DNA of 64,000 nt from Euglena gracilis (taxonomy: Eukaryota), in contig CP154954.1 in assembly GCA_039621445.1 (NCBI GenBank), forward strand, positions 3,725,715 to 3,789,714, written 5' to 3'. A model generated the notes under the pieces. It was not told where the DNA came from and searched no databases. It saw nothing but the letters and a program-made list of their open reading frames with translations. Both the position numbers and the translations under genes were made by a program. The first letter of the stretch is position 1; each line of letters begins with the position of its first letter. Positions 1,404-63,523 of this stretch are shown one piece after another.

Positions 1404-3143
1404 CGTCCCGAACCCCCCCCCAAAAAAAGGGTTGATAGCAAAGCGCACAAATGCGAATGGCGTCCTGAATGTGCGGTTCACCAGAAATGTCCACACATAT
1501 GACGCGCAAATGGCAACATCGTCTGCATCCTTTCGGTTCTGTTTGAACACGAAACAACCAAACTCGAAAGAAGTGTTGATGGGGGTTTTAAGGAAAATTT
1601 TGGGCCGAAAAAATTTCCGAGCGCTTGGCGCTGAAAATTCAGGTACCCACCTGGCCAAGACTGGGCATTCAATTCGCTCGTGAAAATTTTCCATCGTGAA
1701 ATTTATGGCCGGCAGTTGAAAATTTCACGCATTTTTTCAAAAATTTCACTCGTCCTTAGTATGGAAGACGTATTTCCTTCGTTGTCCCTATTGCACGGAA
1801 CAAAGAGATTTGTGTTCCTCCCGTGCCTGCGACGAGGTTTTCACTTACTTTAACGTGTTTCGGACATACATCTCTCAAGGTTTTGCGGCTGCAGCCAGCC
1901 CCGATTTGGGCCCAGCCAAGCCGCAGCAGCACCCCCCCCCCCCCCCGTTTGAAATCCCAGTTTCTTCCGAAAAGCTTTTTCACCGAAAAACCCTGCACCT
2001 TGCACGGGGGGGGTAACCCACCGCTCACCACGGCACTAAAAATTGGCATCGGGAATACGGAAAGCCTTGGTGGGGGGGTTGGACCCCCCAGGTTGAGGGG
2101 ATTCCCGTACAGACTTCCTGACACTTAGGGGGGGGTGCCAGTTTTCAGAACACACTCCGAGAAGAAAACCCTTTTGACAAAATTTTCAGGAAGACAAAGG
2201 CAGGAAACACAAGCAAAACCAAAACCAATGAAGAAAGTGCGCAATTAACAACAACAGAGTCCTGTGTTTTTTCTGCAAAACACCACAGGACCCTGACAAA
2301 CAGCTGCCAATACCTTCACATCTTCTTCTTCTTTTGTAACTTCTTTGACTAAAATTCACATTCAACACGTGGAACCTGTGAGTGGAAGAATCATGAAACA
2401 CAACACGCATGACGGACAAATCGGACGGAAAAAAAGAACATTGGCAAATCTGGCAAAATTCCAGAATGAAGCCACATGTCCTAAAATTAAAAGCAGACAA
2501 TGCCAGGTGAAAACACACCCAAAACACAGGTCAAAGACAGAGCTGCAGCAAGCGTTCTCTGTGAAATGGAAGCAAAAGTTCCTTCATGTAAAACACCACC
2601 AGAAAACCAGATGGACCGTCAGAAAATGATAGAAAAACAGAACGCACAGTAGAAGACCTGCCACACAAGAGGGTGGCACTCAAAATTGTCACCCAGCGGA
2701 GCGTATTTTGGAAAAAATGGCAAATTTTTGAAAGTGGTCAAGATGCACCAGAAAAGACCAGGAGAACAATTCTTCAAAAGTCACCTTCAGGGGGGCATAC
2801 CTGCTTCGTTCAGTAAATACTGCATCAATATATTCCTTATCCTTCAAATAGTTGGATTCTGAGTTCCAGACAAAGAAAAACAACGAATTTCAAGGGGGAG
2901 AACACACCAGTTTGCTCCCAATTAGGAAGTCCTTCGGTCCGCGATCGCAGCGAATGTTTAAAACGCCTTTCTGGGTGTTGGCCACCATCATCAAGGCCGG
3001 AAATTTCGGAAGCAGTCGGGAGGGAGAAAGGAAGTAGGATTCTCCCATTTTTTCAATGAAAATATTGAAATTTTTGAAAATTTTGAAATTTTCTGAAAAA
3101 ATAAAAAAACGTGAAATTTGCCCAGTCTTGCACCTGGCCCAAC

Positions 3144-3721
3144 CATACTTGCAGTTAGTGCGACCGGAAAAAATGCTTCCGTGCGCCGCGACCACCGCGG
3201 AAAAATTTTTTTTGTAACCGGCAGCGCCGCGGCAAATTTTTTTCTGTGCGCCGCGAATGCCGCGGCGCTGGTTTATGCGTGTGCCGCGACCGCCGCGGAA
3301 AGTTTTGAAGGTTGTGCCGCGACCGCCGCGGCAATTGTCTTTTTAAATTGTGTCCCACATATACTTCCTTTCTGCCCCTTCCCTTGCCTGGCCTCTTTGA
3401 TACTTTCTCGACCATGGCCGAGAAGGGTATTTGGCGGCAGGGAGTGAACTCTTGTGCAAGTGTTCTTGTCAGTTTTCACAGATTAGCTTTCACCATGTCA
3501 AGTGACCTCCACATCAATGTTCTTTACCTCCGGGCAGAAAAATTTTTTTTTGCCGCAACCACCGCGGAAAAATTTTCCCCTTGCGCCGCGACCACCGCGG
3601 CAATAAATTTTGCTTGTGCCGCGACAGCCGCGGCAAAAATCTTTCTGTGCGCCGCGACCACCGCGGAAAAATTTTTTTTGCGCCGCGGCAGGAGCGCCGC
3701 GGCGCACTAACTACAAGTATG
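3144..3721. mobile_element. hAT-like non-autonomous element with GCCGCGACC(A/G)CCGCGG subterminal repeats
   Basis: TIR CATACTTGCAGTTAGTGCG / CGCACTAACTACAAGTATG (18/19). TSD ggcccaac at 3136-3143 and 3722-3729. Confidence 0.88.
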
Positions 3722-6190: not shown

Positions 6191-7800
6191 GTGGGCCGGG
6201 CTGTTTTTTTTTTTGACGTTGTTTTTTTTAATTCTAACAATTTTTTTTTTTAAAAACCAACATTATTACAACAAACATGAAACAAAAAAACTCATTTTTT
6301 TATTTTTAAAAATGTCCATTATTGCTGCCCGTGGTGTCCCCCAAAATATGGCAGTGCTGGCTGGGGGGGGCGGGGGCGGGGCAATGTTTCAAGCCAAACT
6401 GTGGCAGTGGTGTGTGGTTGGGCTGCCTCTGTCACCAAAATGTGGCAGTGCTGGCTGGGTGGGAAGGCCCATCCTTGACGCGGTCCAAAAGCTTAAATTA
6501 CGCGAAATTTGCAATGCTAGACTTTTCGGCTTTCCATTGCGTGCATGTCCCATTAAAATCTATTCAAAATCCAGTCAAATAGGGGTGGGAATGTCCGCAA
6601 ATTCCTTCTTTGGAGTGGATTGTGTGAACTCCTTTGAGCTTGCTATTACCTGGTCTCCAGGGGCCCGGGGGGGGGGGTCCCCAAACAGCCCAAAACTGTT
6701 TTTTTGGCATATTTTAGGTGGCTAACTTGGTTACCAACCCCCCCCTTTATTTGGCCGCCCTCCGGGCGGCACGGACCCCCCTTCTGGCCAATTAGGGGGG
6801 GGGACAATTAGGGGGGGTTACCCCTAACCCCCCCCCCCCCTAAGTGGCCACCTGGACCTAGCAAAGGCCGTAATCTTTCACTTAAGTAATTTTCATGAAA
6901 TTTCACGGCTTTTGTAATTAATTTCGTGGACCATGAAAAGTTCGTTTTTCATTCACTATTAATATTGCCGTCCGGCGAAAAGCGACCTGCTTCAACCCCC
7001 GTTATATGGTAGCCCAAACGAGGTGGTTCCGAAAAAATGTACTACTACTGTGCAGACTGCTGATGCCCACAGAGGAAATACGTCCCTTATAAAACGCGTT
7101 GTGTTAAGCGAACTTGCTGTTTGCCCCACCGAGTTTTGTGTTGTGTCCCAAAAAAAAGGACCCAGAAAACGTTTGGAATCCCATGATGCCAAAAAAAAAT
7201 GCCTCACTTTCTGAGTTTTGGGCTGGCGAACACAATCGAAAGGACGGAAAAAACCTGGAATTGCTGTGCTTGGTAGTTGGTGGTCATGCCACCGGTGGTC
7301 ATGCCACTGGCACAAAAGAAGGGAAAGGGGGGGGCCGAAGGCCGCCTCACAGGCGCAGCCGTGGCCCGTTGTAGGCAACAGGGTTTTTTTTTAAGTAATG
7401 CTCCTTTCCCTCTTTCTCCTTCTCCCCTACCCCCCCACCCTCCCCCACACCCACCACACACCACCCTCCTTACCCAAACATTCTCCGTCCCCCCCCTCCC
7501 CGGCACCGACGTTTTTATAAGGAGGGGTGGGGGGGGGGGTGGAGTGGGAAGGACTTTTGCCCGAAAATGGCCATGAAGTATACAAAAATAGCCCTTTTTC
7601 ACACCCTTTTGGAGCCAGAAAAAGGAAACCCACCCTCCAGCCGCACTCCCCCCCCCCCCCAGGGGTGCGTGGTCCAACACTAAAAAAAACCCTGCCTTGC
7701 CACAAACACCTCGCGGAACAACCTGTCCACGGCATAGAGTCGCATCAGGGGAATTTGTGCCTGGGGGGGGGGGAGGAGCTCGTCGACAAATAATTCTGAC

Positions 7801-8205
7801 TACCATGCCCCCCCCCTTACTGTTCCCGTCCCGTGGCCCCCTTTTGGGTCCATGGGAACAGTAAGGGAGGGGGGAACAGTAAGGGGGGGGGACAAGCTCC
7901 CCCCCCTTACTGTTCCCATGGGCCATCAACCAACCAACCAAATTAGACCCAAAAGGCGACCTAAAATGCCAAAATGAAGCTTTTTTGGTTTACATGCTTG
8001 AAAATTGCACCTCCACAACATCCATTTTGGCGTTAGGTTGGATTTTGGTGGGATGGAAAGCACCTAAAACCGACCAAAAAAATCCCCTTTTTACCTTGTG
8101 TTCCAAGAATCCTTTACAAAAAGTGCTATGACACTGTACTGTTCCCGTCCCCCCAATGGGAACAGTAAGGGGGGGGGAACAGTAAAGGGGGGGGGGGGCA
8201 TGGTA
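7801..8205. mobile_element. Tc1/mariner-like MITE (TA|CCATGCCCCCCC)
   Basis: TACCATGCCCCCCC...GGGGGGGCATGGTA, with internal inverted TTACTGTTCCC/GGGAACAGTAA motifs. Confidence 0.7.
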
Positions 8206-8679
8206 ATACAAAACACACTGGTGGGCTTCTTTTTAAGACCCCCGGCCCCCCCCCCCCGAAAATCGGGCCCGTCAAAGGCAATTCTCAAAAATTTTCCGAG
8301 CCTCACCGAGGGCTCCGGACTTGAAAGAAGACTGCCACCGACTCACAAGAAAAAATACACAGGGCCGTACTAGGCACGTGACTCCATGGGCGAGGTTCAG
8401 CTTTGGGCGATTGTTCACGTGCCTCCCCAGCATGGACCAGACCCGCTCCACGGACGCGGTAGTGCAAGGCAGGCAGCTCACCAGCAACGCCAGGGGTTTT
8501 TTGGGGTGCCTTTGAACATAAAGTGAACAAACAGTAAATCCAATTTCATAAAAGAAACCCTAGGAGTGATGGATTTCCAGCAAAAAGTGAACAAATGATA
8601 AACAGAGCAGAATTAAAAAAACCCTGCCCCTGGCGAACTTGGCAAGGGGTTGGTCCATAAACATGGCCCACCAGCAATC

Positions 8680-8927
8680 GGGGTCATGCTTGTGCTTACA
8701 TACGGGGGGTATGGGAGGGAAGGGAAGGGGTTAAGGGGGTGTCTGACCGCCCCCCCTCCCGACACGGAGGGCTTTCATTTAAAATCGAACCATCAAATGC
8801 TCTTTTTATTACAATATTTTTGAAATCTTTTTTGGGCAATCTTTGAGGGAAAAACACCTTCCCATCAATCAAACCTGGGGGGGGGGCGATGCAGGTGGGT
8901 GTGCCCCGACTAAGCACAAGCCTGATT
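8680..8927 (-). other. Nonconventional intron = MITE (8685-8924), TSD 7/8
   Basis: ACCCCAAT / ACCCCGAT flank CAGGCTTGTGCTTA...TAAGCACAAGCATG (13/14 TIR). Removal gives HP|DCWW. Confidence 0.85.
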
Positions 8928-9044
8928 GGGGTGCTGCAGGTTGGACAGCAGCGGGACCCCCGCCGCGTAGACGTCCCTCAGCTCCAGGAAGTTCACGATG
9001 TCGGGTAATGTGGGAGGCTTTGTCCCAGCCGGCATGAGCGCGTT

Positions 9045-9178
9045 CCAGCCAGGGGTTTTTTTAAGACCGGGGGGGGAGGGGGGTTGTTGTGTGTTAATGT
9101 CCGAGTGACTAATGTGAGTCTGTTGCCACACTCCATGTATGAAGCGCCATGGGATCCAACTTAAAAAAATCCCTGGTT
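9045..9178 (-). other. Nonconventional intron = MITE (9050-9175) with perfect 8-bp TSD
   Basis: TSD gttccagc at 9042-9049 and 9176-9183. TIRs CAGGGGTTTTTTTAAG / CTTAAAAAAATCCCTG. Removing AAC+element+GCTGG gives in-frame ..ADGW|NALMP.. Confidence 0.9.
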
Positions 9179-9255
9179 CCAGCCGTCGGCCATGACGAAG
9201 GCGATGGTGTCCCTTTTTCGTTGCGTACCCAGCAGCTCGCCTCTGAAGCGGGGGT

Positions 9256-9353
9256 GCAGCCAGGCTGTTTTTTAACAAACCCGGGGGAGGGGGGGAGGGC
9301 ATTCCTGTGAAAATAGGTCATTTTGGGTCACAGGACTAAAACACAACCTGGGT
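9256..9353 (-). other. Nonconventional intron = MITE (9261-9350), TSD 7/8
   Basis: GCTGGACC / GCTGCACC flank CAGGTTGTGTTTTA...TTAAAAAACAGCCTG. Removal restores the conserved YLLDPRF motif. Confidence 0.85.
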
Positions 9354-9405
9354 CCAGCAGGTAGCTAGCTGGCTGCTGCCCACGGGCGGAAGAAGAGGGG
9401 GTCCC

Positions 9406-9518
9406 CCAGGCATACAATTTTTTCCAACCCCGGGGGGGGGGCACTCCACTTTTCTAAAAAACCAGTCAGTCACTTTTTTTTGGGAGGCCAGGGACAGTGC
9501 TTAAAAAAATGTCTGCCC
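9406..9518 (-). other. Nonconventional intron, MITE-derived, TSD 7/8
   Basis: CCTGCGGG / CCTGGGGG flank CAGACATTTTTTT...AAAAAATTGTATG. Removal gives in-frame DLRDPLFF. Confidence 0.75.
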
Positions 9519-10750
9519 GCAGGTCGGCAGCCGCGGCAACTTGCCGCGCCTGCCTTGCTTGTAGGTCACCTTGTAGCAGCTCCAAACTGCCGCGCAGCAC
9601 CCCCAGAGCCGCTTCTGGTTCTGAGTTAAAAAAAAAAACACCGTCGACCAGAAAAAACCCTGATTTGTATGTACTTGTGGATGGCGAACCCGGTATTCGT
9701 CTGCGGGGACTCCAGACTGTGGAGGAAGGCCGATACGTGGCCCAGGGTCTGCGCCATGCCCTGGAACTCCATCCAGACACCGGGAGCCCAAATCCAGCCC
9801 ATCTGACGGAAGTCGTCATTGGCCCAGGACTCTCTGCGTAACTTCAGCATCGTCAGCTCGATGGGCTCCCTGTTGGCGATCAGGGACCGAAGACACTCTG
9901 CTCTGGATGCCCATCTCGTTGACACCGGCTGATGGAGCATCGTGAACCGCTTCTGTCTGAGACAGACCCCTTTTTCTTGCAAATCTGATTTTTAAACGAA
10001 ATGCAGACATAGAGTTGTCCAACTCTGCGTTTTTCTTACGATGGGTTGCGTGAGTGACCAAAGACCAATTCTTGACAAATTTTTAAAACGAAATGCAGAC
10101 ACAGAATGACCGACTCTGGATCTCAAAAAAAAGCCTGCTCCGGCTGGCCGGGCGTTGTTCAGTTTGTCGACCTCCTCGCGATACGTTGCCTGCGCGTAGT
10201 GCGCATTTCTCAGCAAGGCCTCGATGCTCATCGCCTTGGACATCAGATCCGGCCAGACGCTGTCCCTTTGAGGCCCACGCTGGCCAAGGGACACACCAGA
10301 ACCAGGGCTGAACATCAGAGTGGGGGGACCCCACCTCACACACAGACCATTAACACTTTAATGAAACAGCGCCGGCCTGGTTCAGGTCCTTCATCAGCAA
10401 CTCCGCCGAGTGCGCCAGGCAGTTCTGCTTGATGAAAGCGAACAGGGTCCAGCTGCACGGTGGGGGGGGGTGGGAGTGGCCATGAACCGCAACCAAAATG
10501 CCTGGCCACTTTAGGAGGCGTGAAACCATGGACTGCACCCGATGGTTGAAATTACTTCAGACCCAAACTCCTCGAACACGGGAACAAATACCAAAATACA
10601 CGAACAAATTCCACAGACACCACCAGTGTGCCCCCATTTGTGCATTGTTCAGCCCTGGACGGCAGCCGGTCAGCACCCGCCTGAACGTTTGCCCCGTTGT
10701 CCGCCAGGACTGCCACGATTTTGGCACCTGTGCTGTTGGCAATCTCAGTT

Positions 10751-10819
10751 GCCGCCAGGAGTGCACAGGAGCCACGGCGCCTCAAACGCAATGCCGACGG
10801 TTTGACTGCACCCCTGATC
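10751..10819 (-). other. Nonconventional intron (69 nt, in frame, no TSD left)
   Basis: T|GATCAGGGGTGCA...TGCACTCCTGGCGGC|A matches the euglenid consensus. It is hidden inside ORF 10552..11049. Confidence 0.8.
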
Positions 10820-11631
10820 ATGGCGGCTTGGATCCAGGCATGTATGTTTTCTGCAGTCTGGCGCACGTCTTGCTGGTCCACCGTCCACAGCCACACGTTT
10901 TCCGGCTGCTCCAAGTCCAGCAGCGTCATCCCCAGGGTCTCCATGTGCATATGGTCGGACCAGCCGTCAATGCAAATGGCGATGGAACGCACCTTGGACA
11001 ACTTCTCCTGCAGCCTGCCACGGGTTTTGGTGTACAACGCATCGACCACATGCTACATTTCATAGGACGCAAACCACGTCGAACACATTTGCATTGGGCT
11101 GGGGTCCGTGGGAATCTGCACTGAAAATGAAATGATAAGCCTGGTTCAGCCGACGCTCCAATGTGTGGCGGGACGGTGAAACAAAATCCCCTCTGAGCGC
11201 CTTCACAAACTCCTTCCACTGCGGAGTGTCGGGACACATTTCCATTTGCCCGCAAGCTTTTGGGAAAAAGGGAAACGTGTGTGAGGTTGTTGAACGGAAT
11301 GCCGCTGCTCGCCTGCCACATTGACAGCAACTCCTCCGCCCGCACCTGCATGTGCGTGGGGAACCTTCGGTCCGCCACTCTGTCCAAGGTAAGCTGCTGC
11401 TGGTCAGCGTTTGCTTCACCTGAGCAGGCCGCAGGAAGCACCTGGGCTTGCGCGCCAAGCAACAGCTGGCGTTTGTGTCTCCTGTCGTAGTGCTCTTTGC
11501 ACCGCGTGGCGTTCGCTGCCACTGTCCAACCACAGTGTCTGCACTTCACTGTCTTCACCTTCCCGTCTACATCTGTACGAATTGGCTGGTACTGTTGCCA
11601 TAGTGTGGCGGACACGGGCACGGGCATCTCC

Positions 11632-11661
11632 CTGAAGAAAAATATCGAGAGGGGGAGGAAA
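11632..11661 (-). promoter_or_regulatory. Polypyrimidine tract + AG acceptor 4 nt upstream of the transposase ATG (probable spliced-leader trans-splice site)
   Basis: Minus strand reads tttcctccccctctcgatatttttcttcAG|ggagATG. Euglenozoa trans-splice a leader onto such acceptors. Confidence 0.6.
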
Positions 11662-11924
11662 GTAGGACTCGCGGTTGGTCGCGAGACAATGGAAACTTTT
11701 TACTTTTCAATTTTCTGAGATTTCATGAAAATATGGAAAAATGCAAGAAAACCGTGCAAATTTCACTTTACTGAAATTTCAGGCCTTTTGAAAAGTTTTG
11801 GCCATTGCTACCTGGACCCCGTCCTTTACAGTCGCGAACCCCCTAAAACACCCGAATAAAGACATTTTCCCTTAAAAACGTGTTCAGCCCGCCAAATGCC
11901 TGCCCTGAAATTCGTGGTCATGAG

Positions 11925-12720: not shown

Positions 12721-14551
12721 GTGGCAAAAGACCATTCACAAAGTTTGCCGTGCGTTTGGCCATATTGGCAGGGCCATAGGCCATATTCGGGGGCCCCTGG
12801 CTGAACACGTTTTCAGGCTGAAATCTGTGCTCAGCCACAATTTGTGTATAGAAATGAGTAACCCCCCCCCCCCTAATTGGCCACCTGGGCTCTGGCCAAT
12901 TAGGGGGGGGGGGACAAATAGAGGGGGGGTTGGTAACTAGGAAGGGTCCATGTTTCACCAAGGGAAACATTCCTGAAATTTTCATGAAATATTTCAGGTG
13001 AAATATTTCAATATTTCTTTCACTGCAATGCTGAATAATTTGATGTCTTAGAATCTTGTTGTCCGAAAAAAATTGCCAGGAGCTCCTACACCAAACAACC
13101 GACTTTCCGCATTCCACATCATACTTTTTTCCACGTCTAGCCAGTTTTTATTTTGCACTTTATTTCAAAAACGTTTGCAAATACCACCAATTTGTTTGCA
13201 TTTTATCTCAAAAGGTTTGCACCTTATCCTAAATTATTTGCCTCTGTTCTGACAATTTTTGCATTCGGATTGGGTTTTTTTGCACAGTTGTCCTTTGAAA
13301 CTTCAATGGAGTGGATCTTTTTTCCATTAGTGCAACGTAAGACTCCAAAAATCACCAAATCGGCATCTTGAGGACATGTTCAAAACCGATCTAGTTGCAG
13401 AAATTTTGTCTAGGTTTGGCATCCAGTTCGGCCTCCGACCCCCCCCCCCCCCCGAAGTGGTCAATCCAGGTCGCACAATCTGGATGATCCATTTTTTGGG
13501 GGAGTTTGGCCCCCCCCCCTCTTGCTTACCCCTTGCCACTGGAACCCCCCTGCCTTCCCCTGTGCAGTTCAGTTCCCAAAGTGAAGGGGGGAGGGTCCAA
13601 CACCCCCTCCCCCTACGTCCAAGCCCCCCCTCGGGGGGGATCTTTTCATTTTTACAACATTTTTTTTGCGGTGCAACACGGTGCTTCTGTCTTTCTGTCC
13701 CCTAATTCTGCCATAGCAGGAAAAAGAGCGGGCAAACTAGAGATGTGATGCCAGGGATTTACAATGGCAAATTTATGGGATGCATGCTGAAAGAATGGGA
13801 AGAAAGTTGGTGTCTTTGACAACATAAATATTTGTCAACTGTGTGCTGTTGAAGATTTCATTGAAATGAAACCCGCTCCACTTGATTCTTTGCACGTGCT
13901 GCAATTGAATGCTGTCGAACAAGAGTGGTTGGCCAAAATCTCTCCCCCCCCAGTACCATTGCCATCTTTGCATTGTACAACATGGGGTGAATTTCGATTG
14001 GTTGCATGGTGTCCCTGAAGCCGGAGATGTGTATGTTTGCAAACATTGCCAGAAATCTCTAATTGGGCCAAGCCCAATTCGACCACCACGATCTGTTGCC
14101 AGGGAAAACCTTTTGGCATAAGGTCAGGGTTGCCTGAATTGACAGCGCCGGAGGAACGCCTCATTGCCCCGCAAACAAATTCCTAATTACCGTCCGAAAA
14201 CTGGCGTCTCCCCCCCGCGTCCCCCCCCGCGTCCCCCCCCGCGTCCCCCCCGCGTCCCACTTTGGAACCAAAATTTTGTTCTCGAGACAGCCAAATCTAG
14301 AAGGCTGATTCCTAATTTCAGGCAAATTTGAGGTTGGTGATTCCTAATTTGGTGTGGGTGATCCCTAACTTTTGGTGGGTGATTCCTAATTTGGGTTGGG
14401 TTTGTCCTAATTTGTTGTGGTAGAATCCTAATTTGGCTAAAAATTTCTCGCAACAAATTCCTAATTTCACCGTCCGAAAAATGGCGTCTCCCCCCCGCGT
14501 CCCCCCCCGCGTCCCCCCCCGCGTCCCCCCCGCGTCCCAGACACCCCCATA

Positions 14552-14820: not shown

Positions 14821-15371
14821 GTTCGCAACTGCCGCATGCGTGTGGGTCCCACTTAGCTGAAACAAGGCCCCACCTTTTTGTTGCGTGTAAAATGGAAACC
14901 GGTGGACATGATTTACAGGAGATTCCATTGGAACATATGGCAAATATAACACAGGATCCCACAGTAGATAGCCACTTGGTGGTATGGGAAACAAAGAGAC
15001 CACACAAATCGACGACGCGGCAAACTTGTATCTTTTGTCCTACCTTATACCTCAAATGCGCAAACTCTAGGAGGGGAGGTGGGGGTGCTGGCATTGGCAA
15101 ATTATGTCGTGGGATATTGTACAAAGAACCCTCTGAAATTAGGTGGGGTTTTATCAGTCTTGCGTCATGTCCTGGGCGAAGTTGAGGAACGGCTCGGACA
15201 CAAAATGCAAGCGAAGGAAGATTATGCCGTCCTTTTGAAACGTGTTGTTGATGCCATGGATCGAAAGATTGAGGTGGGTGCCCAAATGGCAGCCACGGCA
15301 GTACTATTTTCTGGCGTCAGTTCTTCATTCTCCAGTTGTTGCAAAACTTCATCCCTCTGGGAACTTGTAAA

Positions 15372-15528
15372 TACCATGCCCCCCCCCCCCCCATATAAGA
15401 CCCCCCCCTGGCTGGCCGAAGGCCGGCCCTTTGGCCGGGACCGACCCCCCCAAGACCCCCCCCATATAAGACCCCCCCCCTGGGATTTTGGCTCCCGAGG
15501 GGGGGTCTTATATGGGGGGGGCATGGTA
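15372..15528. mobile_element. Tc1/mariner-like MITE (TA|CCATGCCCCCCC)
   Basis: TACCATGC..CATATAAGACCCCCC / GGGGGGTCTTATATG..GCATGGTA. Confidence 0.75.
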
Positions 15529-29688: not shown

Positions 29689-29966
29689 CCCCCCCCCCTG
29701 CGGGCCAGGAGGGGGGGGTGGGGGGGACACCCCCCCACCTAAACCATGTACGCCCTCCTTATATCGAACCCTGGTGTAGACCTACCCTCGGGAATCACAC
29801 CAACCACACAAGGTGAGTGTATGTCCCTACAGCACTGGAATTACACCAGAGTTGCTCACCCAGCCACGCGGAGCAACACAAGAGCACTGGTGTAAGGGGT
29901 CCCTGGCCACTCACCACCAGGCTTTTTGTTTACCGACCGGGGAGGGAGGGGGTGGGTCAGTGCTAC

Positions 29967-30691: not shown

Positions 30692-32013
30692 GTACTTTTC
30701 CCACTGTTCGACACAGCCATTTTCGGGGGGTGGAGGGTCAAAAAACCAATGTTTTCAAAATTTCTCGAAAATGATGCAAAATCAAAGGAAATGTCCAGAC
30801 ACCTAAATTGAAGCCCTTGGGACGCTCTATCTACTGGGATTATGGGTTCCCCGCAACTCCCCGCGTAGCTCGAGATACGGGCGTTTTTTTTTTGGCCAAT
30901 TTAGGCCATTTTAGGCCATTTTGTACACTTTTTCCACTGTTCGACTCAGCCGTTTTCGGCCAAAAAAGTCGAAAAAAATCAAAAAATTTTTTTTGCCCGA
31001 AACGATGTTTTTTGGCCTCCCGGACCCGGAAAAACTGCTTTTGAGCCGAAAACGAGCGTTTTACGACCCGCCGGCGCCCCGTTTTGGGTCGCCAACCCAT
31101 TGATTTTGGGTCAAACCCGGGTCAAAAAAGTCGAAAAAAATCGAATTTTTTTTTTGCCCGAAACGATGTTTTTTGGCCTCCCGGACCCGGAAAAACTGTT
31201 TTTTTGAGCCGAAAACAAGCGTTTTTCGACCCGCCAGCGCCCCGTTTTGGGCCGCCGACCCATTGACTTTGGGGTCAAACCCGGGCCAAAAAAAGTCGAA
31301 AAAAATCGAAAAAATTTCATTGTCCGAAACGATGTTTTTTGGCCTCCCGGACCCGGAAAAACTGCTTTTGAGCCAAAAACGAGCGTTTTTCGACCCGCCA
31401 GCGCCCCGTTTTGGGCCGCCAACCCATTGAATTTGGGTCAAAACCGGGTCAAAAAAGTCGAAAAAAATCGAAATTTTTTTTTTGCCTGAAACAATGTTTT
31501 TTGGCCTCCCGGACCCGGAAAACCTGTTTTTGAGCCGAAAACGAACGTTTTTCGACCCGCCAGCGCCCCGTTTTGGGCCGCCGACCCATTGACTTTGGGT
31601 CAAACCCGGGTCAAAAAAAGTCGAAAAAAATCGAAATTTTTTTTTTGTCCGAAACGATGTTTTTTGGCCTCCCGGACCCGGAAAAACTGCTTTTGAGCCG
31701 AAAACGAGCGTTTTTCGACCCGCCGGCGCCACGTTTTGGGCCGCCAACCCATTGATTTTGGGTCAAAACCGGGTCGAAAAAGTCGAAAAAAATCGAAAAT
31801 GAGCGTTTTTCAACCCCCTCCCAAGCCCAGGCCGGGCCGGCCGGGCGGCTGGGTCGCCGGGCTGCTGGGCCGCCAGCCGGACCGCCGGGCCGCCGGGCCG
31901 CCGGCCGGGCCGCCAGGCCGCCGGCCGGGCCGCCGGGCCGCCGGGCCGTCGGGCCGGGGTCAATGAAGGGGTGGGGGCGCGCTTATAAAGAGCTCAGCAC
32001 TATTCAAAACCTG
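30692..32013 (-). mobile_element. Inverted partial copy of the same element, containing a ~163-bp tandem array
   Basis: Start motif on the minus strand at 32013. Unit anchor CGGACCCGGAAAA at 31021, 31182, 31348, 31511 and 31674. Confidence 0.75.
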
Positions 32014-32621
32014 GTCCGGACCACCCCCCCCCCCAAATTGCAAGGGGGGTCCGAACCGACCCTCGGGGGGGTTCCCGGGACCCCCCCCAAAAAGGGTCAA
32101 TTTTTTCCTCCGGCGCTTTGCGCCGAAAATTTTTTGCATTTTTGGCACATTTTTGCCCAAAAAGAGCCCAAAATCGCACTTTTGGTCGTTTTGGGGGGGT
32201 CAAAAATTTTCGGCCAGGCGCTTCGCGCCGGGCCGAAATTCGGCCACCCTGACCACGCACCTGTTTAGGTGGGGGGGGGGTGTCCCCCCCACCCCCCCCC
32301 TCCTGGCCCGCCGGGGCGTGTTCCGGACCCCCCCCCCCCCCTCTCCTTATATCGAACCCTACACCCTTGCGCCGTGCTGCTCTTGCCTCCTGCCCTCTTC
32401 CCACTTTTCTGTGTGTGTGGGTGGTGCATGGCACAGACTGGCTTGGACCCCCGGGGGATGGGGAACCCTCTGGCTTGAGCGACGCCCTGACCCCCCTCCC
32501 TGCAAGCTGGTGAGCAATGTACAGCACTGCAAGTAAATAAACAAAAAGAACACAAAGCTAATGCCTTAAATGCATTTGACAACACAAAATAAAGCAAGAA
32601 TGCAAAAAAATGGGATGGGAT

Positions 32622-32900
32622 CAGGGATTTTTTTAAGTTTGGACCCCCGGGGGGGGGAGGGGGGGGGTAGGGTGGGTAGGTCCGGCCGAGCCCCCCCCCC
32701 CCCCCCCCCGGGGTCCCCCCGGAGGGGGGTGGGATATACTTTTCGGCGCCGCAGGCGCCGAAAAAATTCTATTTTTAGCACTTTTCGCGATTTTTCGGCC
32801 ATTTTTTTTGTGGGTCCCCCGGACCCCCCCCAGGGGGGGGGGCCCCCCCAGGGGTGGGTGGGTGAGGGGGGGACCCCCCCCGGTCTTAAAAAAACCCCTG
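32622..32900. mobile_element. hAT-like MITE, longer relative of intron 9045-9178
   Basis: TSD gatgggat at 32614-32621 and 32901-32908. Ends CAGGGATTTTTTTAAGTT / CCCCGGTCTTAAAAAAACCCCTG are the reverse complement of the intron element's ends. Confidence 0.92.
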
Positions 32901-38209: not shown

Positions 38210-39420
38210 CAGGGATCCTCACATGTCCTGAAAAGGAAATTCACGGAAATTCACGGAGGATCACGGAAATGGATGGAAGACCATTTTCACGGAAATCACG
38301 GAAATTCACGGAAATTCACGGATGAGGCGGAGGGTTCTTTTTTTGAATGCACTTTGTTTGTGCAGATGCATTTTGATGGGACGTTTTGCACATTCTCTGC
38401 CTTCCAAACAGACAATCACGCAAGCAAAACCCCATTCAGACAATCACAGATGATTGTGTGGCCGCTTTCCTCCATTCTGGTCTCCTGGTCACAAAATTGG
38501 ACCACGAAAGCATCAGAGGTGTTCTCCAGAAATACACACCAATTGAGGGCGTGTGGGTTTTTGCTTGTTCAGAAAATGACCTTCCACCTTTCCGCCCAGG
38601 CTGCATCCAGAAGGGTCAATCGCTATATTGGTCCGCTGACAGGGTTTTGGCAATCCATTTAGGGGCAATCAAGAAGAAAATTCAAGGACAAAAGGTTGGA
38701 TATACAGGTGTGGATAGGAACTGATGAATGCACTGACGTTCTGGGCATGCGATCATAAACATTTTGGTGGGTATGCAAGGGAAGATCTACGCTGTAGCCC
38801 CCCACTTATCAACCCCCCGGGGTTGTAGGATCCGGTTTGGTTGGTCAGCTGAAGGGGGGTTTATAGGTCCCGGAATTGTTGGTGATATTCCGACCCCCAA
38901 AATGACCCCAAACCCCCGAAATTGGCATTTTTTGACAAATTTTGGTAAAAAAAAAGGCATTTTTGATGATGGTCGGTCTCAAAAAACTGCCAAAAAATCA
39001 GTTTTTCGGTGGTTTGTGGCTGGAAAAATCATTTTTTTAACCATTTTTCTTCCCCAGGTGGAGGGGGTTATAGGTCCCGGTTAGGTTGGTCGGCCCGAGG
39101 GGGGGTTTTAGGTGGGGGTGTTGTAAGTGGGGGGGGTTAGCATGCGTTCAGTTGGATTGCAGACGGCCAAAATTGGGGGTTGAGCACTCGGAATTGGCTT
39201 CAGCTGTTGTCGAGGCCCTAGAAGATCTCCAGGATTATAATATGGAGAAACAATCTGCTGCCACAACTGCCCAAATATGGCTCCGGTGCAGAATGGAATG
39301 TGGCTTTTGACCTTTTCCGGAAACAGGAAAATCACGGAAATTCACGGAAATTCACGGAAATTCACGGAAAATCACGGATGCATTTTGACCTCGTCAAGCA
39401 CGGACGTGTGAGGATCCCTG
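38210..39420. mobile_element. CAGGGATCCTCACA TIR element with (GGAAATTCAC)n subterminal repeats, 7-bp TSD
   Basis: TIR 18/19. cacctat at 38203-38209 and 39421-39427. Confidence 0.85.
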
Positions 39421-41428: not shown

Positions 41429-44200
41429 CTCTAGGCGGTAGACTGGGGGGGGGGGTAGTGGGTGGTCGGCCGACTAGGCCTGGTCGGCAGCTAGTCGGCG
41501 AGACGGGGGGGGGGGGTTGTGGGTGGTCGGCGGATTAGTCGGCCGACCACCCACTCTAATGTAGTTACGGGCCAGTCTCGCCGACTTTTAAGCCCCCCCC
41601 CCCCATGAAGAAAATTGTATGCAAACTAGTCGATGGCTAGTCGGTGGTCATAAAAATGGTCTGTGGCGGGTCCAAACCACCCGGAAATGGTCCGGATGGG
41701 TCCAAATAAGTGCCTTACACCAACATAAACACCCTCAGATGGAAATCTTTGGTCGGTGGGGGTCGGTGGGCCCTTGATGGGGTCCGGAGGGGTAAAAAAC
41801 CAATGATGAAACAGAGATTACATGAAAATCCTTTAGAAATGCAAGCATTCTGCATCACGACAGGCTGAAAACTCCCCCCTCCACCCCCATCCGAGCCTCA
41901 GATAACAAAACCCTTCTGTGGTGGCAACATACTCCGGGGTTAAGTCGTTTTTGTGGCTCACTTTGGCTAGGCGGGGGGGGGGCCCCCCCCCCGCAACCCC
42001 CCCCCTCAAATAACAAAATCCCTTCTATGTTGGCAATATACTTGGAGGGCTAAGTCCTTTTTGTGCAAATTTTGACTTATATTGACTTATATACAACGGG
42101 GAGAGGTGTTCTTTTGCCAAAAGTGGCCCAAAATGGACATTTTGCCCCAGTTTTTTGCATATTCACCCCCGATGGGGGGGTTCTGGAGCCATTTGGGTGG
42201 GTTTTGACTGGTGTTGGGTGATTTGGACAAAAGTTTATTCTCAGGGGGGGGGGCTTTAAAGTCGGCGAGACTGGCCCGTAACTACATTAGAGTGGGTGGT
42301 CGGCCGACTAGTCGGCCGACCACCCACTACCCCCCCCCCCCCCGTCTCGCCGACTAGCTGCCGACCAGCCCTAGTTGGCCGACCACTTGGGTGGTCGGCC
42401 GACTAGTCGGCCGACCACCCACTACCCCCCCCCCCCCAGTCTACCCTCTCGCCCCCCCCCCCCCCCCTGGGTCGGGGCCACCTCGGGAACACGCGGATTA
42501 TCACCATGATCCCGGCTCCGTTCCCGCATTTTTTTTTCAGTCACGAGCGAATGGATTTCTAGCTTCTGAATCACCTCCGTTTGACCCCCAACTCCCCGCC
42601 AGGCCCGAGTTATTCACGCGCGAAGGGGTCCAAACTGTCGGTAGGATTGGCCCGCCCCCCCCCTCTTCCGACTCTGCCATTTCGCCGGGGTCCAAAAATT
42701 GGTCAAAAATCAATTTTTCGAAGATATCTCAAGAAAAAGAAGATTATTTCCGGAAATGTCAGTCTGACGAAACATACCCCCGGAGGCCCTCTATCGCCCC
42801 CCGTTCACCGTTTTGGCTGCCGACACGCTTGGCCTGTGTTCCGTCGCGCTTTTGCGGCCTAAAACGGCCATTTTGGGGAGTTTTTTTGGGCCTTTTTTTT
42901 CGGACAAAAATCAATTTTTTCAAAATATCTGGACAATGAAGCAAATTCAAAGGAAAAGTCCGGAGAGCAAAAATGAAGCCCTTGGAATGCCTTATCCAAC
43001 CATGGTTTACTTTTCCCCAAATTTTGGCCATTTCTGGGGCTGTTTTCGGAGTCAAAAAAAAGATGTCTCCAAAATATCTCGACAATGAAGCAAAATCAAA
43101 GCAAATGTCCGGAGACCTAAATTGAAGCCCTTGGAACGCCCTATCTAGCAGTATTTTGATTTTCCCGCAACTTCCTGTCTTGCCCGAGTTACGGCCATTT
43201 TACGGCCAATTTTGGTAATTTTGTACAGTTTTTGGCTTGTTTTGACTTGGCCGTTTTCGGGCATTTTTGGGTCAAAAGGTCGAATAAAAAACAGAAAATT
43301 TTTCTTGCCCGAAACGATGTTTTTTTGGCCTTCTGAACCCGGAAAACCTGTTTTTTTGAGCCGAAAATGAGCTTTTTTCGACCCCCTGGCCCCCGTTTTT
43401 TTTTTGCCTCAAAACCCAAGGATTCTGGGTCAAAAACAAGTAAAAAAAGTCGAAAAAATCCAACAGAATGTGTATGGAGTGTATGGAGGTATGGTTAAGA
43501 GCGAAGCTTACCCCTGGGCAAAAGGGGCGGGTCGGACCCGCCCCCCCCTGGGTCGGGGCCACCTCGGGAACCGGCGGATTATCATCAGGCTCCGTTCCCG
43601 CATTTTTTTTTTTCAGTCACGAGCGACTGGATTTCTAGTTTCTAATTTCTAGCTTTCAAATCACCTCCGTTTGACCCCCAACTCCCCGCCAGGCCCGAGT
43701 TATTCACGCGCGAAGGGGTCCAAACTGCAGGTAGGATTGGCCCGCCCCCCCCCCCCCCTTCCGACTCTGCCATTTCGCCGGGGTCCAAATATTGGTCAAA
43801 AATCAATTTTTCGAAAATATCTCGAGAAAACGGACATTATTTCCGGAAATGTCAGTCTGACGAAACATACCCCCGGAGGCCCTCTATCGTCCCCGTTCGT
43901 CGTTTTGGCTGCCGACACGCTTGGCCTGTGTTCCGTCGCGCTTTTGCGGCCTAAAACGGCCATTTTGGGGCCCTTTTTTTCGGACAAAAATCAATTTTTT
44001 CAAAATATCTGGACAATGAAGCAAATTCAAAGGAAAAGTCTGGAGATCAATAATGGAGCCCTTGGAATGCCCTATCCAACCATGGTTAACTTTTCCACCA
44101 ACTTTTCGTCTAGCTGGACGAGAAGTTGGGGGAAAAGTAAAACTAAAGGAGTTAAGGCCATTTTTCGGCTAATTTTGGGGCTATTTTCGGGGTCAAAAAA
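41327..44200 (-). mobile_element. Two partial tandem minus-strand copies of the asymmetric element
   Basis: Terminal motif at 41327-41370 and partially at ~43495-43515. Segments ~42470-43020 and ~43550-44095 are near-duplicates. Confidence 0.65.
41437..42445. mobile_element. Long-TIR (foldback/MULE-like) element
   Basis: Inverted arms of ~165-200 bp built from GGTGGTCGGCCGACTAG motifs. Flanks ctctaggc / ctctcgcc match 6/8. Confidence 0.75.
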
Positions 44201-44248: not shown

Positions 44249-46980
44249 CTTAGGCGGCCTAACTCGCACTTAAGGTTTTCATTTTTAGCTTGCGCTTTGG
44301 CGCAAATTTTCGATTTCTTTGAGACCCGGCGGTAGAACCCACCCTTTTGACCCTCTGGTTCCGCGGAGACCCTCCACGGTGGCGTGTGCATCATTTTCCG
44401 ATGTTGGGACCTGGGGAACAGGCCCATTTTTGGTGTTTTTCGGCCTGTGCACCATTTTGAAAAAGGTCCAAAACCCTGGGTTTGACCGCCGGGACACGTG
44501 AATTTTCCCAAAAATGGGCCGAAACCCCCGTTGTGAGTCCCTCGTTTTTGAAGCCTCAGCTGTGTTCCCCGGATGGCGTCACACAGTCCAGGTGACAATT
44601 GGCCCTTTTTGTTGTTTTTTTGGCTCTGTGATATGTCCGTGAAGAGTTTGGCTGCTGAGGCATCCAGAGGGTGGACTCTACATGCACGTTGTGAAAAGTT
44701 GGAAAAAACGGCATTTCACAGAGTTGTGATCCCTGGGTGCTTGAAGCGCGAGGAGCGGTGCAGCGGGAACCACCCTGGTGGGGGGTTGGGGGGACTGAGG
44801 GCAAGCCTAGGGACCTCTCCCAACGTCTGGTGAGCAACGCCAGGCCCCACACTGCTGGGCACAGAAGGCAATGGTTGAGGACATTTGCGCTTAAGCGCAA
44901 ATTTTTAGCTTGTGCTTAAGCGCAAGTTAAAAAATTTGCGCTTAAGCGCAAGCTAAAACAGAAGCCGCTGAGTTTGTGGGAGTCCCTCTGATGTGTTACG
45001 GTGTGTCGGGGGCCCCTCTCTGAACGGCCAGAGTGCGGGCTTGGTGAGGAAATACCTTGCGCCGAAGCGCAAAGGACATGCCTACATAATGCACTGCTTG
45101 TTCATCCACATTACACGTCAGCCGCGTGTTTGCATTTCTCAGTTTTTTGTATGATGGTTTGCGCTTCGGCGCAAATGTATTTCCTCACCAAGCCCGCACT
45201 CTGGCCGTTCAGAGAGGGGCCCCTGACACACCGTAACACATCAGAGGGACTCCCACAAACTCAGCGGCTTCTGTTTTAGCTTGCGCTTAAGCGCAAATTT
45301 TTTAACTTGCGCTTAAGCGCAAGCTAAAAATTTGCGCTTAAGCGCAAATGTCCTTTTAAATGGCAGATGTATTTGAATGCGTTCGTGCTGTGTGAGAAGG
45401 TGGGGGATAGGGGAGAATGGTGAGGGGGGTTTGTACGCTGCTGTGCCAGAAGCTGGGTTGGTGCTTTTGAACTATTCAGGTGCTGGGGAGATAGTCGTTG
45501 TTACAATAAGACGAATGGTGGGCGGTAGGCTGTGGTGCCTCAGTGACCTTGCACTCGGTGCACAAAGTGGGGTTTTTGGGGATGTTGACAGAAAGGCTTT
45601 TTCTGCTGAACAATGCCCTCCATCTGCCTGGTGGCATGTGGCTGTCTGGTGGGTTGCAAAATACCGAAGAAAGGTGTGTCAGCATGTCTTCCCTTCTCCG
45701 CCGTTGTTGATGGGCCCTTTCAATTTCTCAATTCCATTCGCTCATCCCCAAAGTTCTGTGCTTCAAATCCTGGGCGAGGAAAGGGGGGTGACGAGCTTCT
45801 TTAAAACACCCTTTCGACGCCTAAAACTGTTTCCTCGGCTGTGGTTCCCAGGGTTTATCTGGTACCTGTTCTTTTCCACACAGGTATTTTCCGACTTTCA
45901 AAAGTCGGCCAAAGAGAAGGGCCCCTCAGGCACGCTTAAGTGCGAGGCAAGTGGGAGGAACCACCGGCACTGGAAGTTGGGTTTACAACGCATAGGACAA
46001 GACACGTCTGGATATCAAGGAGTTGGTGGTTGCTTTCACACACCAGGGGGTTGGCTTCCTGCCCCAGGCAAGGCTTCCCTTCATCTGAGCTCTGTCCGCT
46101 CTGGTGATGAGATGCTTCCAGGACTGCTCTCTCCACCCGCAGTGATAAAAATGGGAAATACAACTTGATGGCTGTTGCGCCAAAGCGCAATGGGTAGGCT
46201 CATGAAGAATGGAAATTTAAGAGTTATATTGCGCCAAAGCGCAAGTAGAAATACATTTTTAAGATTGTCAAAGCAACGTGGCTCTTGCGCCGACGCGCAA
46301 TGTTGACCAGTTTTAAGTCAACGTGACTGAGAGTAGGCTTCCGTCCCCCTGTTCTGCATTTTTGTGCTCTATCTCCTCTGGTGTTGTTACTCTACCAGGG
46401 CCGTTTCTCTCCCTGCGTTGTGAGATAAGTTTTAAACAGTTACATTTGCGCTTCGGCGCAAGCCATGTTGCTTTTGCACGTTTAAAAAATGTATTTCTAC
46501 TTGCGCTTTGGCGCAAGGTAACTCGTAATTTTTCATTCTTCATGGGCCTACCCCTTGCGCTTTGGCGCAAATGGAAACACACGTTGACTCAAAAGTTGTT
46601 ATCATTGTTCAAATGCGGCAATGGTCACCCACGTGTTGAATCACAAAAAAATCAAAAATTTGCGCCAAAGCGCAAATGGTTTTATTTTTTGTAATTTCAA
46701 AAATTTGCGCCAAAGCGCAAATGAGTAGTGGAGTCCCCTCGTTTCATCACCCGCCGCTGTGTGTTCATGCACACTGGGCCCCGGCAGCGCTGTACCCGTG
46801 GACTGTGCAGTTCCCAGTCGTTGCTTTCGTCCCCAGGCCCTGGGGTGCAAGGAGAGACTGTTTTCAGACTGTCTCGAGTCTCAGGCCACGGTGGTCGGTG
46901 GTCAAACTTTTTTTGGGATTTGCGCGTCGGCGCAAATTTACAGTCACTTTCAAAGCTAAGTGCGAGTTAGGCCGCCTAAG
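44249..46980. mobile_element. Non-autonomous TIR element, CTTAG...CTAAG ends, 5-bp TSD
   Basis: 24-bp perfect TIR CTTAGGCGGCCTAACTCGCACTTA, with aaaaa on both sides. Many TTGCGC-N4-GCGCAA palindromes. Confidence 0.88.
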
Positions 46981-55300: not shown

Positions 55301-55861
55301 ATGCCAACCCGGCCGAATTTGGACTTTTTTTGTCTGTTTTTGGGGCCCGGCCGGACCCAAAACCAAACCACACCTCCACCCGGGTTTTTAAAAAGACTTT
55401 TGATGCCAAGTCAGTTTTAATTTTTTGCCAACAGCTCAGTTTTTTTTTCTTTAGGTGAAGTTATGGCCGCCTCTTCCTACAAAAAAAAAACGGGGGAAAT
55501 TTGCGAAAGTTCAATGTCGGCCAAGTCCCCTCACCCCTGTTCTGTTTCGTTTTGACGTTCTTTCCTGAGAGGCTGCCCGCTGGGTCCCACATTGTCAGAT
55601 TTTTTTGTCCAAAATGGAACCCAAATAGAAGTTCGAAGAAGTTTTTTTTTTGAGACGGAAGGATTTGGTGGCGGCAGGATTTTTTGTGAAGAACGTTTGG
55701 AAAAAATTGGCAGACTGTGAAAAAGGAATTTGAATATCATGCGGCACAAAATTCGCCACAAAAATGCACAAAAATGCACAAAAATGCACATTATTTGAAC
55801 AAATGCTCAAGGATGACACCCACCGTGTGCCACCCCCGTCCCATCAGCTGGGGGGGGGGGC

Positions 55862-62939: not shown

Positions 62940-63523
62940 CAGGGTTCGATATAAGGAGGGCATATGGGGTTTAGGTAGGGGGTGTCCCCCCCCCCTGGAC
63001 TGCAGGGGGGAGAAAATTGCACCGTGCAATTTTTGCAATTTTGTGCAATTAATTGCACATGGCCTGGGATATTTTGTTTTGGAAAATATCATTTTTTGAT
63101 GCAATTGAGAACTTGCCGTGTTTTTTTTTTTGCTGGGAAATTGATGTACGTAGTGAAATTTCCGTTCAAAGGCTGTTTATTGTTGGTTTACTCAGTGTGC
63201 AAACCTTATCTTGAGTCCCCTGCCCAGGTGTCTTTGATACTTTCTCAACCAGGACTGGAGGGGGTCTGGTCCACCCCCCGGGGTCCGTACCGCCCCCGGG
63301 GGGATACCTGGAACCCGCAAAAGGTAAATTTTTTTCCGGCGCTTTGCACCGATTTTTTTTGCATTTTTGACAAATTCGTTTTGGGGGTTAAATCTTTCGG
63401 CCCGGCGCTTCGCACTGGGCTGACAATCCGTCACCTGGGCCACGCAATTGTTTAGGTGGGGGGGTGTCCCCCCCTTGACCAGGGGGTCCGGACCCCCCCC
63501 ACCTGCCCTTATATCGAAGCCTG
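62940..63523. mobile_element. hAT-like MITE, CAGGGTTCGATATAAGG family
   Basis: TIR 16/17. TSD gggggccc / gggagccc. Confidence 0.85.

Follow-up and report, generated by a model that had tools for sequence, protein, structure and literature searches.

Candidate nonconventional introns of Euglena gracilis as probable hAT-type MITEs whose 8-bp target duplications match the 3 + 5 splice spacing

The introners of Micromonas and Aureococcus are reportedly DNA transposons that create introns, the target duplication being part of the splice logic; their removal is said to be the work of the spliceosome, which acts at GT-AG sites, and the duplication is said to provide one of the two. At the Euglena gracilis locus described here, removal would instead follow the nonconventional pathway and would be measured from the paired ends of the element. 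The maize hAT element Ds, when it lies in an exon, is also said to be removed from the transcript as a de novo intron, reportedly by the spliceosome, through cryptic sites and usually with a changed mRNA. In contrast, an exact deletion of the element and one duplicate is proposed here. The introner elements of Amoebophrya (Farhat et al. 2021, PMC7789003) come closer, as they are non-canonical introns with inverted repeats of 8 to 20 nt and boundary-overlapping direct repeats and have been read as MITE-like. However, they belong to another lineage, their direct repeats are variable and only 3 to 5 nt long, and the available text of that report gives no fixed 3+5 rule for them.

The closest described system is the nonconventional introns of euglenids themselves (Nomura et al. 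2025, PMC12501133; Milanowski et al. 2014, 2016). In the accessible parts of these studies, such introns lack GT-AG ends; CAG follows the first 3 nt of the intron and CTG precedes the last 5, the two ends pair, a purine opens the next exon, and direct repeats occur at the junctions. The candidate introns of our study resemble them in these respects, with either CTG or ATG on the 3′ side. The published code reads 5′-N3CDG-/-CH′GN5-6 followed by R, the 5′ spacer being strictly 3 and the 3′ spacer 5, with 6 tolerated, and in a knock-in assay every single substitution tested within the CAG/CTG motif abolished splicing (PMC12501133). The same 2025 study calls the origin of the introns unclear, and repeat-flanked ‘slidable’ introns were left out of its motif analysis. 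Previously, a MITE-like insertion has been proposed for nonconventional introns (PMC3935182), and terminal inverted repeats (TIRs), ‘TSD-like’ repeats, and a pyrimidine/purine consensus at both junctions have been described (PMC11282704). A recently gained gapC intron of E. agilis bears eight-nucleotide direct repeats, interpreted as the trace of break repair, and a purine has been noted at the intron's 5′ end as well as where the downstream exon starts (PMC4770533). For E. gracilis, the reported consensus is CCAGG at +3 to +7 and CCTG at -9 to -6 (PMC11170887), which the CAGG..CCTG ends seen in our sequence match. In the full-text literature, we found no 8-bp duplication, hAT assignment or 3+5=8 argument for euglenid nonconventional introns, although subscription journals and supplements may hold such. 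A MITE origin in general and TSD-like repeats are already published; what is new are the actual families, a duplication length fixed at 8 bp, the nested insertions and the arithmetic that ties 3+5 to 8. Where the accessible literature has an unclear or ‘MITE-like’ origin, the intron body here is a recognizable member of a repeat family with a complete or nearly complete 8-bp duplication.

The present study concerns a 64-kb stretch of E. gracilis DNA (contig CP154954.1; hereafter the window), which is nuclear DNA of the euglenid type. As originally predicted, four consecutive segments, which lie in a probable hAT-type transposase gene, and a fifth segment at 58848-59835 prove to be CAG..(C/A)TG elements with TIRs and with flanking 8-mers that agree at 7/8 or 8/8 positions; the predicted limits take in 3 and 5 further bases beside the elements. 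That the segments are mobile DNA elements with 8-bp target duplications is supported by the existence of family copies, by the nesting, and by a target that is in part palindromic. We consider it probable that they are hAT-type MITEs, and that nonconventional splicing removes each element along with exactly one duplicate, leaving no scar in the mRNA. The features are collected in Table 1.

Table 1. Mobile elements, candidate introns and transposase gene of the window (TIR, matching bases in the terminal inverted repeats; strand ".", none assigned)
Feature	Position	Strand	Element and ends	TIR	Flanks or duplication	Remarks
Autonomous-looking hAT element	6859-11810	-	4952 bp; TAGCAA[A/T]GGCC	10/11, read by eye	CCTGGACC at 6851-6858 and 11811-11818	Holds the transposase gene
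hAT-type transposase gene	8272-11627	-				Predicted BED-like zinc finger at N-terminus; predicted DDE/RNase-H core with CIDGWSD, then TRW, LLDPRF, WW..ERVWS
Older nonconventional-type intron	8486-8629	-	8491-8626; CAG..CTG		3/8, no recognizable duplication	Element+8 gives ..PLAKFARLVSCLPCTTASVERVWS.. in frame
Candidate nonconventional intron	8680-8927	-	MITE 8685-8924, 240 bp; CAG..ATG	13/14	7/8, ACCCCAAT/ACCCCGAT	Element plus 5 nt on low side and 3 nt on high side
Candidate intron	9045-9178	-	Family-A MITE 9050-9175, 126 bp; CAG..CTG	13/14	8/8	
Candidate intron	9256-9353	-	MITE 9261-9350, 90 bp; CAG..CTG	12/14	7/8	
Candidate intron	9406-9518	-	MITE 9411-9515, 105 bp; CAG..ATG	11/14	7/8	
Older short intron	9599-9665	-	9604-9662; CAG..CTG		1/8	
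Older intron	10444-10660	-	10450-10657	3/14	2/8, by eye	Needs 3+6; G at exon start
Intron backed by spliced contig	11044-11146	-	11049-11143; N3-CAG..ATG-N5, then G			95+8=103
Short intron, same contig	11231-11282	-	52 nt; CAC..GTG, non-consensus			3+4; contig piece ends at 11283; P0001 ..NSL/DTPQW..
Family-A MITE copy	32622-32900	.	279 bp		GATGGGAT, 8/8	Surroundings look non-coding
Candidate intron in membrane-protein gene	58848-59835	+	58851-59830, 980 bp; CAG..CTG	10/14	GTCCTGTC, 8/8	
Family-A MITE copy	58917-59610	.	First base mutated to T		TATGGGCA, 8 bp	Nested in outer element 58851-59830
Family-B MITE	59150-59580	.		14/14	GGGACCCC, 8/8	Nested in family-A copy
Family-B MITE copy	62940-63523	.		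13/14	7/8	

In the scan of the 64-kb window, all five candidate-intron elements (8685-8924, 9050-9175, 9261-9350, 9411-9515 and 58851-59830) have CA as their first and TG as their last two bases, and their TIRs agree at 10 to 13 of 14 bases. Where the flanking duplications are imperfect, the mismatches fall at bases 5, 5 and 6. Read in the mRNA sense, CAG stands at the start of every one of them, CTG ends three (9050-9175, 9261-9350 and 58851-59830), and ATG ends 8685-8924 and 9411-9515. Hence two of the four elements in the transposase gene lack the C of CTG, which sets them apart from the introns of the published euglenid descriptions, as far as those are accessible. An alternative CAG at 9408 had been put forward for the last of the four; its flanks do not match, and the 7/8 duplication needs a start at 9411. 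When introns were taken as the element with 3 and 5 further bases, all eight introns so tabulated read N3-CAG in the mRNA sense, all eight have a purine as the first base of the downstream exon, directly after N5, and seven of the eight have TIRs of 9 to 13 out of 14. The ends pair in the minimum-energy folds of 9045-9178 (z -1.87 against shuffles) and 9256-9353 (z -3.59, with none of 200 shuffles as stable), and the fold of 9406-9518 is not better than that of shuffles (z 0.08).

When intron ends were compared with MITE families, as originally suggested, 9050-9175 proved to belong to family A; no second copy of 8685-8924, 9261-9350 or 9411-9515 was found in the window, and these have only a CAGG-T-run end pattern in common. 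Family A comprises three copies (9050-9175, 32622-32900 and 58917-59610) with three different duplications, all of them perfect over 8 bp; between the first two, both ends match, at 27/28 and about 20/22 bases (read by eye). Family B is present as two full copies (59150-59580 and 62940-63523), with partial matches at 32012-32360 and 29693-29774. At 58.85 to 59.83 kb the elements are nested three deep: a family-B element sits within a family-A copy, which in turn sits within the outer intron-like element, and each layer has its own 8-bp duplication. As the inner two lie in non-coding sequence, their duplications stem from insertion and not from selection on the mRNA. Furthermore, a comparison of 13 duplications shows complementarity between bases 1 and 8 in nine of them (P 0.001) and between bases 3 and 6 in eight (P 0.006); the target is thus palindromic in part, as the target of a transposase would be expected to be. 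Metagenome scans with the end motifs of families A and B gave 0 and 8 matches, respectively, none of the eight with a partner end, and Rfam gave no match in the window. Among the 15 joints listed of 240, exact empty sites appeared only for a MITE family that duplicates TA (7803-8203 and 15374-15526).

The 8-bp register was compared with chance in several ways. Among 261 CA..TG pairs of the window with TIRs of at least 12/14, low-complexity pairs being left out, the 8-bp register yields nine whose flanks agree at 7/8 or better, and six have perfect 8/8 flanks, where an estimate of chance gives about 0.004 (261/4^8). In twelve shifted registers, the same 261 pairs gave 0 to 4 such cases each. 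At shifts of +1 to +3, each of the eight non-zero rows goes back to a long palindrome or to an AT microsatellite; the single row at shift -1 is a true 7-bp duplication belonging to a strong element, 38210-39420. In 20 first-order Markov simulations of the window, 0 to 2 such pairs with matching flanks arose at TIRs of at least 11/14, against 10 in the real window. Cases with TIRs of 9/14 and flanks of 7/8 (for example, 53110-54488 and 54904-55402) are within chance, about 7 being expected among 19520 pairs by estimate, and were not counted. Likewise, 15375-15525 was dropped as a 7/8 case; that element and 7803-8203 duplicate TA, their joints of 155 and 403 nt amounting to element+2. Several of the elements with 8-bp duplications in the window have CAA or CAT ends and lie in sequence that has no coding signal.

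Removal of element+8 has clear consequences for the reading frames. For 9261-9350, it recreates YLLDPRF, and +7 and +9 fail, so that the original claim of a restored motif stands for this joint. It stands less well for WW, which had been named as a second restored motif: at 8685-8924 the joint reads ..NLQHP/DCWW.., and WW lies two codons downstream of it rather than being split by it. Element+8 removal also yields ..ADGW/NALMP... The exon 8928-9044, in the frame given by 3+5 at both neighboring introns, has GC contents of 0.67, 0.41 and 0.87 by codon position, which is coding-like. For 58851-59830, the frame is open across the joint with a GC3 of 0.82, and the GC3 phase of the exons calls for a deletion whose length is 1 mod 3; 988 fits, and 987 and 989 do not. 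However, any insertion that duplicates 8 bp restores its frame automatically when element+8 is removed, and frame restoration therefore marks the places of the insertions and is no evidence of splicing. An open reading frame was also rejected as a test of +8, as 1396 of 15625 spacer combinations stay open and the lengths of the spanning frames do not discriminate. One stretch does not fit: from the TRW exon to YLLDPRF, 17 extra bases, rather than 16, have to be lost with the introns at 9604-9662 and 9411-9515 taken together. This would mean 3+6 splicing at one of the two, or else a 1-nt indel in a decaying copy. Whether 9411-9515 is +8 or +9 depends on the frame of exon 9519-9598, and GC periodicity weakly favors +8.

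The transposase gene holds at least nine introns of the nonconventional type, and five of them appear older, with a flank identity of only 1 to 3 of 8; one of these needs 3+6 and one 3+4. For the intron at 10444-10660, only 3+6 leads to ..ADRLPFAFIKQNCLAHSAELLMKD.., matching the relatives. These introns, together with the 7-bp duplication of 38210-39420, speak against a strict form of the 3+5 rule. So does the ATG end of two of the four younger elements, where the code in the accessible text of PMC12501133 needs CTG.

The RNA evidence bears on the strongest alternative, namely that the segments are plain MITEs inserted into one dead copy of a transposase gene that exists in many copies, and that they undergo no splicing; the agreement between 3+5 and 8 bp would then be a coincidence or a property of a minority of introns. 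We regard this as unlikely. Raw RNA runs (X21 and X22) give near-zero cover of the gene, and most of their reads lie only partly on the stretch, with poly-G/C in the loose ends listed; such cover would suit a dead gene. No junction rows for the four elements occur among the 15 joints listed of 240, which settles neither presence nor absence. Splicing of these particular copies is barely demonstrated, by one boundary in an RNA contig that points to it: a contig piece of X15 ends 34 nt from 8961, and hence either at 8928, which is the predicted 5′ junction of 8685-8924, or at 8994. An end at 8928 would speak against unspliced insertions.

More is seen in a near-identical copy of the gene. Record 10 of X15 is a spliced contig of 1430 nt from such a copy, with a piece that starts at 11043 and an unplaced gap of 84 nt that corresponds to exon 11147-11230. 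The protein P0001 (185 aa, 93% identical) reads ..ERRL/DALYTK.. and supports the intron 11044-11146 with 3+5 junctions. Thus, the ATG-ended element 11049-11143 is removed in a spliced contig of a near-identical copy. On the other hand, the contig and P0001 come from a copy that is 93 to 98% identical to the gene, and they represent a mis-spliced form in which 10661 is joined to 9874 (3+6, at a cryptic site in the TRW exon), with a premature stop; this suits unspliced insertions in a dead copy. The same reading can also draw on the automatic restoration of frame, on the 17-versus-16 discrepancy, on the ATG ends when set against the knock-in results accessible in PMC12501133, and on the CAA- and CAT-ended elements with 8-bp duplications in non-coding DNA of the window. 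It is weakened by the N3-CAG start and the purine after N5 in eight of eight introns, and by 58851-59830, to either side of which its gene shows strong coding periodicity that is in phase only for +8. The eight-nucleotide repeat of a new intron (PMC4770533) and the same consensus at both junctions (PMC11282704), as described in the available text of these papers, fit removal by splicing as well. On balance, we infer that these copies are probably removed by splicing, and that the 3+5 rule may correspond to the 8-bp duplication more generally.

The assignment of the elements to hAT, which the original prediction had also made, holds in part. In its favor are the 8-bp length of the duplications of these mobile elements and the hAT-type transposase gene in the window. 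Dimer_Tnp_hAT (Pfam) matches the last exon alone with E 9e-4 and 19.4 bits, below its cut-off of 21.4; the relative P0004 passes the DUF659 cut-off, and the relative P0013 matches zf-BED weakly. An exhaustive search of representative proteins gave 18 relatives, all as short N-terminal fragments. Word-indexed protein searches with the DDE exon, the last exon and the TRW exon found no relatives, and the C-terminal half has no intron-free relative in them. The gene sits in an autonomous-looking element, 6859-11810, the only one with 8/8 flanks among 2419 pairs with TIRs of at least 12/16, where about 0.04 would be expected by chance (estimate, 2419/4^8). Its perfect 8-bp duplication indicates that hAT-like transposition with 8-bp duplications operates in this genome. 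However, its ends differ from those of the MITEs, and no autonomous hAT element with ends matching families A or B was found in the 64 kb. In several respects the MITEs resemble those of the hAT superfamily: they have an 8-bp duplication, short TIRs that start with CA and no coding capacity, they measure 90 to 980 bp, and they share their genome with a hAT-type transposase gene.

The differing ends leave some room for mobilization by another superfamily with 8-bp duplications, either Merlin or a P-like one. Two Merlin families with 8-bp duplications are described from E. gracilis (PMC8101967). As reported in the accessible part of the same source, though, Merlin ends carry a conserved GG, against CA..TG here, and a transposase family of the hAT type is both present and transcribed; we therefore hold such an origin to be improbable. 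That the 8-bp direct repeats come from double-strand-break repair during intron gain, as PMC4770533 in its available text reads its one 8-nt repeat, is highly improbable, since the same element sequences recur at unrelated sites with different 8-mers at each, are nested in non-coding DNA, and have a constant duplication length and a partly palindromic target.

According to the hAT-MITE reading that we prefer, non-autonomous cut-and-paste MITEs of the hAT type with CA..TG ends (mostly CAG..CTG) would land in coding sequence and duplicate 8 bp. Their inverted ends would pair in the pre-mRNA, and the nonconventional machinery of euglenids would then cut 3 nt upstream of CAG and 5 (sometimes 6) nt downstream of CTG, before a purine. 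Since 3+5=8, the duplicated 8-mer would be cut at the same place in both of its copies, between bases 5 and 6. The element and exactly one copy would be removed, and the mRNA would return to its state before the insertion, whichever way the element had inserted; this follows from the placement of CAG and CTG 3 and 5 nt from the junctions. Moreover, as the two junctions occupy identical places within the duplicated 8-mer, the model predicts the junction symmetry reported in the accessible text of PMC4770533 and PMC11282704. The original proposal that the splice consensus is the transposon end, with 3+5 equal to one duplication, thus agrees in its arithmetic and in its fit to the published code (PMC12501133, as available), and is strained by the two ATG-ended elements among four and by the pair of introns with 17 extra bases. 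Taken as a whole, the original interpretation is partly supported.

A wider proposal, which we put forward tentatively and with rather less confidence than the reading of the individual segments, is that nonconventional splicing acts on RNA as an excision system fitted to a single class of DNA transposons. Most nonconventional introns (more than 70% of E. agilis introns) might then derive from CAG..CTG MITEs with 8-bp duplications, and the spacers of 3 and 5 might exist because they add up to the duplication length. If so, every new insertion into an exon would be erased exactly from the mRNA, and the ‘slidable’ repeats at junctions, as well as the identical pyrimidine/purine consensus, would be decayed duplications. 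The 3+5=8 relation makes the hypothesis testable genome-wide on the 649,158 E. agilis junctions already available, and by the knock-in assay.

The origin of the nonconventional introns of euglenids has been open since the 1990s, and the MITE idea (2014) came without identified elements. The window provides concrete ones: named families, duplications of 8 bp and elements inserted into one another, in a genome that also has a hAT-type transposase. If the relation is general, euglenids would represent a eukaryote that tolerates a massive transposon invasion of its exons by means of a dedicated, scar-free RNA repair step, and their introns would represent a way of gaining introns in which the spliceosome has no part.

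In the minus-strand hAT-type transposase gene, the 5′ site of intron 10444-10660 was found to be joined to a cryptic CTG within the exon named by its TRW motif (9874/10661, minus strand), as seen in the spliced RNA contig from X15 and in the 185-aa protein P0001, both of which represent a near-identical copy of the gene. This join has 3+6 spacing and omits two exons, and its product terminates in ..ADRLPTGSPSS*. It is a product of the nonconventional pathway with exon skipping. Nonconventional-type introns are numerous within the transposase gene of hAT element 6859-11810, and the element itself is flanked by another repeat in inverted copies (about 6728-6858 and 12870-12940).

Among the candidate introns at 8680-9518, the mismatches in the 7/8 duplications fall at base 5, 5, and 6 (3/3), adjoining the cut, which is predicted to separate base 5 from base 6. 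We calculate the chance of such placement at the cut as (2/8)^3 ~0.016 (n = 3). Given so few cases, this clustering may be due to chance; it may also be due to selection acting on the junction bases.

The MITEs of a second family, at 7803-8203 and 15374-15526, duplicate TA instead. DNA contigs of run X1 joined 7800 to 8204 and 15371 to 15527, skipping 403 nt and 155 nt, respectively. Both skips correspond in length to the element together with a single TA, and the joins are therefore precise empty sites, belonging to a different copy, haplotype, or strain. Elsewhere, the insertion points of CA..TG elements 1656-3130 and 3144-3721 lie 13 bp apart, and their duplications share three bases (GGC); this proximity and overlap suggest that the site is an insertion hot spot. 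The element at 38210-39420 departs from the 8-bp rule.

Features of the window
Feature	Position	Details
CA..TG elements, unrelated to each other	1656-3130; 3144-3721	ends CAA..TTG and CAT..ATG; perfect 8-bp duplication each
Autonomous-looking hAT element	6859-11810	4952 bp; ends TAGCAA[A/T]GGCC; 8-bp duplication CCTGGACC
MITE, second family	7803-8203	ends CCATGCCCCCC..; TA duplication
MITE, second family	15374-15526	ends CCATGCCCCCC..; TA duplication
Diverged repeats in large blocks, both tandem and dispersed	26.9-31.8 kb; 42.4-44.1 kb; 47.9-52.4 kb	70-94% identity
Array of roughly 160-bp units	30958-31800	part of the repeat blocks
Element with 7-bp duplication	38210-39420	CACCTAT; ends CAGGGATCC.., perfect 14/14
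Element with inverted ends	41548-42298	14/14; repeat extends into flanks
Near-perfect palindrome	44878-45354	477 bp; 89%
Segments with strong GC3 periodicity	55876-56049; 56479-56604; 56959-57072; 58702-58878; 59770-60000	plus strand

The GC3-periodic segments at 55.8-60.1 kb (plus strand) look like exons of a single gene. The ORF at 60487-61017 contains a motif that may be C2-domain-like. Overall, the 64-kb window holds many repeats and few genes.
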